Sequence record: PV292302.1
Direction: 5' to 3' (one strand)
Length of the DNA stretch: 64,000 bases
From: Escherichia phage Jgk1
Under the pieces are notes generated by a model. The model ran no database searches and was not told where the DNA came from. It saw nothing but the letters and a program-made list of their open reading frames with translations. Made by a program: the position numbers and the translations under genes. Below, one piece after another: positions 62,114-63,797 of the stretch; within the stretch, counting starts at the first letter, position 1; every line of letters starts with the position of its first letter.

Positions 62114-62614
62114 CTATTCTAATAATTTACGGTCGGCTCGAATTTGGTTACCCAATTCAATCAGTTGACTGTCACGGAGTCTAACAGTTGCCCGGAGTTC
62201 TTCAACCAATTGTCTGCCTTGTTCAAGACTTGAGTCGAGTCTGGCTGCATGGCTTGCAAGGTTTCTGCACTCAAGGGTGCTGCCTGAGGCTTGACGTTTA
62301 TATACTTCGGCTCTCCTTTCAGACTGTTGCATCCGGCTGTCGTAATTACTGCTAATGCGAGCAAGCTCGCTAGCGTAATTACTTTGAGCCGTCTGCAACC
62401 TAGCAGTGAGCATTCCGACTTCATAACTGTGTTGTATACTGAGAACATCATATTCACCCTTAAGTTTATCGTAAGCTTTCTTATCTTGTAGCTTTTGGGA
62501 ATCCCACTTTGTCTGGACTTTATGTTGTCCATTGCTGGAACCCCAAAAGTAAACGGTGGCTACTAGAGCCACCATCAGAAGATAAGGCCAACCCTTAGAG
62601 ATTAGCGTCTTCAT
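62114..62614 (-). CDS. i-spanin (Rz-like)
   Basis: GGAGG RBS; N-terminal [18 protein letters not shown] then coiled-coil; Rz1-like ORF embedded. Confidence 0.6.
62161..62424 (-). CDS. o-spanin (Rz1-like lipoprotein) embedded in Rz gene in alternate frame
   Basis: ATG at 62424; lipobox-like AVITTAGC; Pro-rich mature region. Confidence 0.5.
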   Translation of the reverse strand: MKSECSLLGCRRLKVITLASLLALAVITTAGCNSLKGEPKYINVKPQAAPLSAETLQAMQPDSTQVLNKADNWLKNSGQLLDSVTVN

Positions 62615-63233
62615 TACATGCCTCCAGTGGCACATTACCTATACGATTGGCTACCCATCCGTAGGTAAAGTCTGGCATATTCAGAGAGGTATAATGGGTA
62701 AGCTGTTTACCGTCTAACAGTTTAATCATTACCTGACATGCTGCCACTTTGCCTCGTTTTTTCTGAAGTGCTTTGTATGCACTAACAGTACCTGCACCGA
62801 CTTTACCATCAACTTGGATTTTAGGGTAGTCTTTGCCGTCACGGGACATTTCATTTAGTGACTGCTGGAGCCAACGGGAAGGGCGAGAAACCCCAGTGTT
62901 AACACCTGCATCCACTAATTTGTGGGTAATAGCTGGGGAGATATCAGCAAAGGCAACGAAGTTAGGTTTGAGAACATAGTCATCAATATAAACTTCAGCA
63001 GCCATTTCTTTAGTTAAACTACCCATCTTCCCATCCCAACCATATTCCTTAGCAAGGATTTCTTTATGGGATTCAGCCACTTTCTGAGTAAGTCCCAGGT
63101 TAGTGTGACGTCCTGGGTCTTTCGGGTTATTTACTTCTCCACCCTCCATCATGAACACAGCCCCCAGGATAGCTGCGACTACTGCACTCACTACACCACC
63201 TTTGGTAGCGAGTTTTTGTTTAGCTGTTGCCAT
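62595..63233 (-). CDS. Endolysin, GH108-family N-acetylmuramidase with N-terminal SAR-like segment
   Basis: EGGEVNNPKDPGRHTNLGLTQ GH108 motif; weakly hydrophobic N-terminus KGGVVSAVVAAILGAVFMM. Confidence 0.7.
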   Translation of the reverse strand: MATAKQKLATKGGVVSAVVAAILGAVFMMEGGEVNNPKDPGRHTNLGLTQKVAESHKEILAKEYGWDGKMGSLTKEMAAEVYIDDYVLKPNFVAFADISPAITHKLVDAGVNTGVSRPSRWLQQSLNEMSRDGKDYPKIQVDGKVGAGTVSAYKALQKKRGKVAACQVMIKLLDGKQLTHYTSLNMPDFTYGWVANRIGNVPLEACNEDANL

Positions 63234-63483
63234 CTGGTTTCTCCTTAGGCTTCAGTCGAATCAGTCTGCCAATAATGTTCAAGGCAAACAGAGAAATAGT
63301 AATACCGGAACCATGAGGAATCTGGTCAAGGATGTGCTTAGGTAGACCAGAGAACAAAGGCTGTATTACATCTATTGCTGAGAAGAGAATTAAACCTACT
63401 GCACTAATCTGGATAGAAGCCCATTTCCAGGACTTCTTCCAGTTAGGTACAAGTTCAACTCTTTTGGTTAACCTGCGAACCAT
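63220..63483 (-). CDS. Holin candidate (2 TM, ~87 aa)
   Basis: Internal ATG of track ORF 63220-63549; two hydrophobic helices; immediately upstream of endolysin. Confidence 0.4.
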   Translation of the reverse strand: MVRRLTKRVELVPNWKKSWKWASIQISAVGLILFSAIDVIQPLFSGLPKHILDQIPHGSGITISLFALNIIGRLIRLKPKEKPDGNS

Positions 63484-63797
63484 GCAAAAATCTCCCGACG
63501 TGTTGCAGCTAAGATACCAATGATTGCACCTGCTGCTGCCCATACCCATTTACCGAAGATTCCAGCACCAACCACTTTATGCTTAATGGTAATGAACTCT
63601 TCAATAGTAGGTTCGTTTTTAGCCAGACTGTCCTCGACATTTTTAAGACGATTGCCCATGTCAGCAACTGACTTACTAAGTTCAACGAGGGATTTTTCTA
63701 GCTTTGCCCGGTCTTCCCTCTCTGATTTCTGGTTTTCGAACAAAGTACGAAACCTCTCATCCAGTCTGGCAAGCATTACCTCAATAGGGTCAGACAT
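63468..63797 (-). CDS. Lysis-cassette membrane protein (109 aa; coiled-coil plus C-terminal TM)
   Basis: Charged helical N-terminus, hydrophobic GAGIFGKWVWAAAGAIIGILAA. Confidence 0.4.
   Translation of the reverse strand: MSDPIEVMLARLDERFRTLFENQKSEREDRAKLEKSLVELSKSVADMGNRLKNVEDSLAKNEPTIEEFITIKHKVVGAGIFGKWVWAAAGAIIGILAATRREIFAWFAG

Follow-up and report, generated by a model that had tools for sequence, protein, structure and literature searches.

An N4-type lysis cassette in Escherichia phage Jgk1 with a predicted pinholin, a SAR-type GH108 muramidase and embedded spanin genes

Five tightly overlapping genes on the minus strand of Escherichia phage Jgk1 (sequence record PV292302.1), at positions 63797..62114 of the 64,000-nucleotide stretch analysed here (the window), very probably constitute an N4-like phage's late lysis module and work as gp63-gp60 of phage N4 do. 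Gene content, order, overlaps, domains, motifs and orthology to N4 were all observed in the window, and tblastn comparison with the N4 cassette (CHARACTERISED) gave amino acid identities of 63% for gp63, 64% for gp62, 65% for gp61, 59% for gp60 and 64% for the gp60a frame, which is unannotated in the N4 record. A compact lysis cassette at 62114-63797 had been proposed from the sequence alone (the original prediction) and was borne out with exact coordinates, the span running from the stop of the gene for the spanin of the inner membrane (i-spanin) to the start of the first gene.

The first gene encodes the putative gp63-like pinholin (63468..63797, minus strand as for all five; 109 aa) and is followed by those of a putative gp62-like lysis regulator (63220..63483; 87 aa), a signal-anchor-release (SAR)-type GH108 N-acetylmuramidase orthologous to gp61 (62595..63233; 212 aa) and an Rz-like i-spanin orthologous to gp60 (62114..62614; 166 aa), within which lies the gene of an Rz1-like outer-membrane lipoprotein (o-spanin), the gp60a ortholog (62161..62448; 95-aa precursor). 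The open reading frames (ORFs) listed for the locus were 63797..63468 (109 aa), 63549..63220 (109 aa), 63233..62595 (212 aa), 62635..62114 (173 aa) and the nested 62532..62161, and their starts were refined using Shine-Dalgarno sequences and the gene calls in relatives. Starts were thereby placed at 63483 (GGGAG, 8 nt before the ATG), 63233 (AAGGAGA) and 62614 (GGAGG, 6 nt before the ATG). The longer starts at 62635 for the i-spanin and 63549 for the gp62-like protein were rejected as main starts, as no good Shine-Dalgarno sequence precedes them and the gene calls in relatives are shorter (87-88 aa for the gp62-like protein), although a longer in-frame form of the latter from 63549 is possible. 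Successive genes overlap by 16, 14 and 20 nt, and the portal gene (62105..59835; SU10_portal, E=7e-147) starts 8 nt past the last cassette stop. No sigma-70 promoter was found in a scan of 61800-64000 and none is claimed; an Rfam match to Clostridiales-1 (25.7 bits against a threshold of 48) was dismissed as chance.

The functional reading draws on N4, whose cassette was resolved by complementation and genetics into a pinholin, a lysis regulator, a SAR endolysin and a two-component spanin of the embedded type (Awuah et al., bioRxiv 10.1101/2025.11.12.688109). In that work gp61 is a membrane-associated muramidase, with activity on peptidoglycan as cited therein, that complements endolysin defects together with a canonical holin or a pinholin, complements R21 of phage 21 and, when present alone, leaks out and causes slow lysis. 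Complementation by the N4 gp63 protein was seen for the S21 pinholin and not for lambda S105; gp63 kills at once and is conditionally essential, and six rapid-lysis mutations lie in it. Rapid-lysis mutants were located in the SAR domain of gp61, where single acidic substitutions suffice, and in the Receiver region of gp63 (T65I, T71A). The gp62 protein, with two transmembrane domains (TMDs), is described as a non-essential 'lysis regulator' of slow, triggerable, holin-like lethality: alone it was lethal after CCCP and released endolysins slowly, it could be deleted without loss of lysis, and no antiholin activity was shown for it. Finally, gp60/gp60a complement lambda RzRz1, and the mature o-spanin has 56 residues (10.1101/2025.11.12.688109).

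The 212-aa product of the third gene matched Pfam Glyco_hydro_108 (PF05838; 57.3 bits against a cut-off of 21.2) and, at residues ~117-197, PG_binding_3 (PF09374; 33.2 against 24.6), was assigned to endolysins in PHROGs, and in phmmer comparisons with solved muramidases matched Sen1395 (PDB 6v3z; E=2.4e-23) and TtsA (PDB 6v40; E=3.7e-17). The GH108 motif E-G-G-x-x-N-x-P-x-D-x-G-G-x-T-x-x-G was represented by E30, G31, G32, N35, P37, D39, G41, T44 and G47, with Arg42 at the second Gly of the G-G pair. Metagenome relatives were 95-98% identical to the protein. The Pfam scores above cut-off and the match to 6v3z confirm the GH108 family named in the original prediction, and from its likeness to N4 gp61, reportedly the subject of a 2007 study by Stojkovic and Rothman-Denes, it is predicted to be active as an N-acetylmuramidase. 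An AlphaFold2 model built from 11 near-identical sequences had a mean pLDDT of 47.8 and was judged unusable, so that the fold assignment rests on the Pfam and PDB sequence matches; DSSP placed a helix at residues 13-27 of this low-confidence model. The protein was rejected as an equivalog of the NCBIfam 'holin-associated N-acetylmuramidase', a bacterial secretion-associated family, its score of 42.8 bits being far below the cut-off of 240.

The sole hydrophobic segment of the endolysin spans residues 12-29 (GGVVSAVVAAILGAVFMM; 63200..63147), is preceded by K5, K7 and K11 and is followed directly by the catalytic Glu30 (63146..63144); Gly, Ala and Ser make up 42% of a 19-residue span that takes in E30. 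This Lys-flanked segment abutting Glu30, together with the 65% identity to N4 gp61, supports the Gly/Ala-rich, SAR-type N-terminus that had been predicted. A hydrophobic N-terminal segment directly before E-G-G was found in 29 of 92 unique GH108 homologs from viral contigs and was missing from the remaining 63, which argues that a 'SAR-type GH108' is a real subclass with the window endolysin as a member. By orthology to gp61, the enzyme is expected to show SAR behaviour, that is, Sec export, uncleaved tethering and release on depolarisation. The ortholog of the N4 pinholin gp63 (63% identity) is encoded two genes upstream, and the endolysin would thus presumably work with a pinholin rather than with a large-hole holin.

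The product of that upstream gene belongs to PHROGs phrog_5211, labelled 'unknown function' (7e-48), and begins with a helical region on the cytoplasmic side, followed by the Receiver motif PTIEEFITIKHK (residues 63-74) and one TMD near the C-terminus (~76-98); its only hydrophobic segment was located at residues 80-98. The stretch formed by the Receiver and the TMD, PTIEEFITIKHKVVGAG, is identical in the window and in N4, including the rapid-lysis sites T65 and T71, and the exact pinholin sequence was found on 14 public contigs. Judged from N4 gp63, the protein would be a pinholin whose small lethal holes let SAR endolysins be released but not soluble ones, and, given the identical Receiver motif, N4-like lysis inhibition is plausible in the lineage of the window. 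The protein does not belong to the S21-type family, having one TMD and no match to a Pfam or NCBIfam holin model. Between the pinholin and endolysin genes, the gp62-like protein (Pfam DUF7940, 2.4e-15, 57.3 bits against a cut-off of 27; phrog_1356 'holin', 1.7e-30) has two TMDs, at residues ~19-40 and 58-76, and by the N4 data is likely an accessory regulator. The two small membrane proteins expected upstream of the endolysin were present, but the holin and antiholin roles proposed for them fit only approximately, since by N4 the gp63-like protein corresponds to the pinholin and the gp62-like protein to a non-essential regulator.

The database labels suggest instead that the two-TMD protein is the real holin and that the first gene encodes no lysis protein: PHROGs calls phrog_1356 a holin and phrog_5211 of unknown function, the first gene is annotated as a tape-measure or tail protein in the records of Moo19, UE-M6 and PW8, and N4 gp62 on its own kills after CCCP and lets endolysins out slowly (10.1101/2025.11.12.688109). 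This is very improbable in view of the properties of N4 gp63, with its complementation of S21, immediate killing, conditional essentiality and six rapid-lysis mutations, and of the dispensability of gp62 (10.1101/2025.11.12.688109); moreover, a tape measure of 109 aa would be far too short, and the real tape-measure-like gene of the window lies at 58236..59453. Read against N4, the database labels invert the roles of the gp63-like and gp62-like proteins. Among GenBank relatives, the gp63-like pinholin appears as 'tail length tape-measure protein', 'tail needle protein' or hypothetical, and the gp62-like protein as 'holin'.

The i-spanin matched the Rz-like spanin family phrog_6197 (5.9e-71) and has an N-terminal TMD (~residues 8-25, within a hydrophobic segment at 8-26) followed by a periplasmic domain of ~140 aa. 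At codon 60 (62435-62437) it carries Ile where 20 of 20 relatives have Arg, a second private substitution in the cassette besides that of the endolysin described below. The o-spanin ORF (62448..62161) lies wholly within the i-spanin gene (62614..62114) in the +1 frame. This nested frame was open, with a signal peptide and a lipobox Cys, in all 22 unique relatives, and was also open in N4 and in a Delftia phage. In the window the lipobox T-A-G-C, ending at Cys40 (62331..62329), follows the h-region and yields a mature lipoprotein of 56 aa with Asn at +2; Asp, the inner-membrane retention signal, is absent from that position, which is occupied by Asn or Ser across relatives. The lipobox reads TAGC in the clade of the window, whereas the Klebsiella-type group has LLGC or LVGC, N4 has IVGC and the Delftia phage LAGC. 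The mature part is highly conserved, with identities of 56-82% among relatives and the minimum in the Delftia phage, where the match covers 66 residues. When the 22 unique i-spanin genes were aligned by codon without gaps, third-position diversity was 0.119 where they overlap the mature o-spanin and 0.342 outside it (Mann-Whitney, p=2.2e-8), a three-fold wobble suppression confined to the mature part, which is a signature of dual coding. The nested o-spanin gene is under dual-coding constraint, and the embedded Rz/Rz1 architecture of the original prediction, with its lipobox, proved correct.

Given that the nested ORF matched no Pfam, PHROG or NCBIfam model and is unannotated in most GenBank relatives, it might be considered a chance open frame in a phage that uses the i-spanin alone or another outer-membrane disruptor. 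We regard this as hardly credible against the frame, signal peptide and Cys kept in 22 of 22 unique relatives, N4 and the Delftia phage, the identity of the mature part, the suppressed i-spanin wobble, and the complementation of lambda RzRz1 by N4 gp60/gp60a (10.1101/2025.11.12.688109), from which the window proteins are likewise expected to function as a spanin pair. Among the candidate o-spanin starts, the ATG at 62448 was conserved in 22 of 22 relatives, that at 62451 in six and the 'MKS' ATG at 62424 in 16; because of its full conservation and the Shine-Dalgarno-like AAGGGTGA that precedes it in the clade of the window (8 of 22 sequences), 62448 is most likely the start, which implies a signal peptide of 39 aa. 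An 'LLGC' in the n-region of that signal (62395-62424) was rejected as a second lipobox, as it is not conserved (SLPGC, LLSGC, LLDY) and is probably meaningless.

From the N4 experiments, the cassette would be expected to act as follows, with tethering and release, pinholes, spanin function and possibly lysis inhibition as in that phage. Exported by Sec, the muramidase would stay tethered to the inner membrane through a weakly hydrophobic SAR helix, and this helix, ending at the catalytic Glu, would keep it inactive; we infer inactivity until release because the catalytic Glu stands at the membrane boundary. The gp63-like pinholin would meanwhile build up in the inner membrane until timed small holes collapse the proton-motive force, whereupon the SAR helix would leave the bilayer and the freed muramidase could cleave peptidoglycan around the whole cell. 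After loss of the wall, the i-spanin in the inner membrane and the o-spanin lipoprotein in the outer one, joined across the periplasm, would fuse the two membranes. The two-TMD gp62-like protein may contribute as an accessory regulator with slow hole-forming activity.

Some features of the cassette weigh against this reading. The signal peptide of the o-spanin is unusually long if the conserved ATG is used, and Thr at position -3 of its lipobox is less common than Leu, Val or Ile, yet TAGC is conserved across the Gamaleyavirus-like clade and presumably fits a PROSITE PS51257-type pattern. Arg42 of the endolysin could mean reduced activity. In addition, 19-residue Hessa and Kyte-Doolittle hydropathy sums, used only to locate hydrophobic segments, gave 2.96 for the endolysin segment and 2.6-5.5 for the other TMDs of the cassette, and did not separate a SAR segment from an ordinary TMD. 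Neither this overlap nor composition alone tells a SAR segment from an ordinary Sec signal peptide that is cleaved off or from a signal anchor that stays in place, with which the enzyme would be secreted constitutively, or else tethered permanently, and not controlled by depolarisation. Such an N-terminus is very unlikely, as N4 gp61, at 65% identity and with a segment of equal length and position, behaves as a SAR endolysin (10.1101/2025.11.12.688109), no Ala-x-Ala-type cleavage site was seen by eye before E30, and a dedicated pinholin ortholog lies two genes upstream.

Arg42 is encoded by CGT (63110..63108) and lies in the catalytic flap D39-P-G-R42-H-T44, the conserved form of which is D-x-G-G-x-T. 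Position 42 was Gly in 90 of 91 unique homologs, the exception (L030) having Gln, and was Gly in all 25 N4-like relatives, in the seven contigs with 93-95% DNA identity and in the 15 listed members of the 90% cluster. The catalytic triad of TtsA consists of Glu14/Asp19/Thr28 (PMC6996933); in the alignment, Arg42 falls two residues ahead of Thr28. The exact endolysin protein was absent from a collection of 15 billion sequences in which the neighbouring pinholin was present. V48L, V59I and N72S, also considered as private to the window, were discarded because they are shared with the cluster representative P0016, leaving only G42R as unusual. The muramidase may accordingly be catalytically impaired, or the base call wrong, in which case lysis by the cassette as sequenced might be poor or its timing altered; the near-universal Gly42, the closeness of Arg42 to the triad Thr and the missing exact protein speak for this. 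We nevertheless consider it rather unlikely, since the distant homolog with Gln shows that a residue other than Gly can occur, the rest of the endolysin is under clear purifying selection (four differences from the nearest relative) and the genome otherwise appears intact. A sequencing error, a tolerated variant and an attenuated enzyme are all compatible with these data, a natural attenuating allele of a SAR muramidase, private to this phage, being a lesser possibility.

A terminator scan detected a candidate regulatory hairpin with a U-rich tail inside the i-spanin gene (62539..62576, minus strand), within the codons of the TMD and 19 nt past the endolysin stop. Its 10-bp stem and 5-nt loop (62576..62552; GAUGGUGGCU-CUAGU-AGCCACCGUU) are followed by the U-rich GUUUACUUUUGGGG, and in the 20-kb late region it ranked with two classical intergenic terminators, located after the major capsid gene and before the virion RNA polymerase gene. 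Hairpin and U-tract occurred at the same place in 20 of the 20 relatives examined, among them N4, Gamaleyavirus-like and Klebsiella N4-like phages, a survey that set aside the distant high-GC N4-like phages L020, L025, L027 and L028; N4 has a 14-bp stem followed by UUUUUCUUCUU, and the Klebsiella-type group has a different stem with the register shifted by 3 nt. In the alignment used for this analysis (A2), 90.5% of cells were paired, against 34-65% with slid partners, and four pairs had changed on both sides; the covariation score of 0.339, against at most 0.18 in slid controls, was reached by none of 500 shuffles. Four wobble-wobble pairs were paired in 17 of 17 in-register sequences by our own count, z-scores of single sequences ranged from -1.9 to -2.9, and in eight lineages the hairpin folded better than 97-100% of the synonymous sequences that encode the same peptide. 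The covariation, and the stability over synonymous recodings, point to selection on the hairpin as a nucleic-acid structure.

This hairpin is not mentioned in the Results and Discussion sections of Awuah et al. (10.1101/2025.11.12.688109) consulted here. It may act as a terminator or attenuator, as a 3'-end stabiliser or as a translational element. We tentatively raise the possibility that it sets the pinholin, regulator and endolysin genes apart from those of the spanins and the portal, by acting within the gene as an attenuator or a terminator or by stabilising an mRNA end, although the lack of a sigma-70-like promoter between the hairpin and the portal gene argues against a strong terminator. 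If this were true, the hairpin would set the ratio of endolysin to spanin expression and thereby influence the timing of N4-type lysis or its inhibition, and, if functional, it would offer a small new handle on the balance of lysis-gene expression in N4-like phages.

The phage itself is an N4-like podophage (Schitoviridae, Enquatrovirinae), the window encoding a 3447-aa virion RNA polymerase (phrog_2206), an SU10-type portal, an N4-type major head protein and a tape-measure-like protein. The polymerase gene, a hallmark of N4-like phages, occupies 39876-50219 of the minus strand, with TTG as the start given by the ORF finder. The cassette DNA matched 79 phage records, all of N4-like coliphages or of Shigella or Klebsiella phages and none above ~80% identity. 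The nearest cultured relatives of the cassette belong to Gamaleyavirus/Moovirus (79% DNA identity), and Logan/ENA metagenome contigs reach 93-95% over the cassette. The order pinholin-regulator-endolysin-spanin-portal is common to the window, Mimir124, Moo19 and N4.

Upstream of the pinholin gene, the region 63798-64000 was compared with contigs L101-L105 and L003. The window and contig L102 have a divergent gene there for a 204-aa protein (phrog_17779; start at 63884, plus strand), and the contigs with an identical pinholin protein (~94-95% cassette DNA identity) have co-oriented, differing tailspike genes instead. A clean intrinsic terminator separates the upstream gene from the pinholin start in three of the contigs with co-oriented genes (L101, L103 and L109) and in N4, with the sequence CCCCTCTTCGGAGGGGTTTTT in L101 and L103, a variant stem in L109 and GCCGGGgataCCCGGCttttt in N4. 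Elsewhere in the window, five tRNA genes (Tyr-GTA, Asn-GTT, Pro-TGG, Gln-TTG and Ile-GAT) are clustered on the plus strand at 36349-36844. A strong palindromic GC-rich hairpin at 56981-56999 (GGGGGAGC-AAA-GCTCCCCC), with T-runs on both strands, adjoins the major head protein gene (57018..58220) just downstream and is likely a bidirectional terminator.

As a lysis cassette the locus brings nothing conceptually new, since its architecture, SAR GH108 enzyme, embedded spanins and pinholin/regulator pair are known from N4; it is ordinary because experiments on that phage have already dissected this module, and its parts are already annotated in dozens of relatives. Its practical value lies in annotation: the hypothetical or 'tape measure' protein would be the pinholin, the 'holin' an accessory regulator, and the o-spanin is usually left unannotated.

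Compared with N4, the cassette has its five genes in the same order, on the same strand and in the same overlapping layout beside the portal gene, with 59-65% amino acid identity in every protein, an identical Receiver motif, a SAR segment of equal length ending at the catalytic Glu and a 56-aa mature o-spanin. It differs in the endolysin, the N-terminus of which is four residues longer and the catalytic motif of which has E33 for Tyr and R42 for Gly; in the pinholin, which has no Met at the position of the alternative start of N4 gp63 (Met17); in the o-spanin, which has TAGC in place of IVGC and lacks the short-signal ATG of N4, so that its start must lie ~24 codons further upstream; and in the gene upstream of the pinholin, divergent in the window and a co-oriented tail gene in N4. 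Among the G7C-like Gamaleyavirus/Moovirus coliphages (Mimir124, St11Ph5, ECBP1, IME11 and Moo19), the cassette is already annotated as endolysin, Rz-like spanin and holin, and the embedded spanin was noted by hand in the records of Mimir124 and St11Ph5. The window represents a lineage distinct from these, no cultured phage exceeding ~80% cassette DNA identity, and has G42R in the endolysin and R60I in the i-spanin as private substitutions.

The strategy predicted here resembles that of phage 21 (S21/R21) and P1 (Lyz), in which a Sec-exported, tethered endolysin is freed by depolarisation through a small-hole holin, and in the N4 study cited above gp63 complements S21 and gp61 complements R21. 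There is no sequence relationship with these systems, however: R21 and Lyz are T4-lysozyme-like (GH24) enzymes, whereas the window enzyme combines GH108 with PG_binding_3, and S21 has two TMDs, the first SAR-like, whereas the gp63-like pinholin has a single C-terminal TMD and a long cytoplasmic N-terminal domain. With TtsA and Sen1395, muramidases of Salmonella typhoid-toxin secretion, the window enzyme shares a GH108-like catalytic domain, a helical peptidoglycan-binding domain and aligned E...T catalytic residues, but the SAR segment occurs only in the window enzyme, and its N35 aligns with Asp19 of TtsA. As in lambda Rz/Rz1, the lipoprotein gene lies in the +1 frame inside the i-spanin gene and the proteins fall in the same topology classes, although Pfam detected no sequence similarity; the mature o-spanin of the window (56 aa, four Pro) has no Cys besides the lipidated one, so that intermolecular o-spanin disulfides of the lambda type are not possible.

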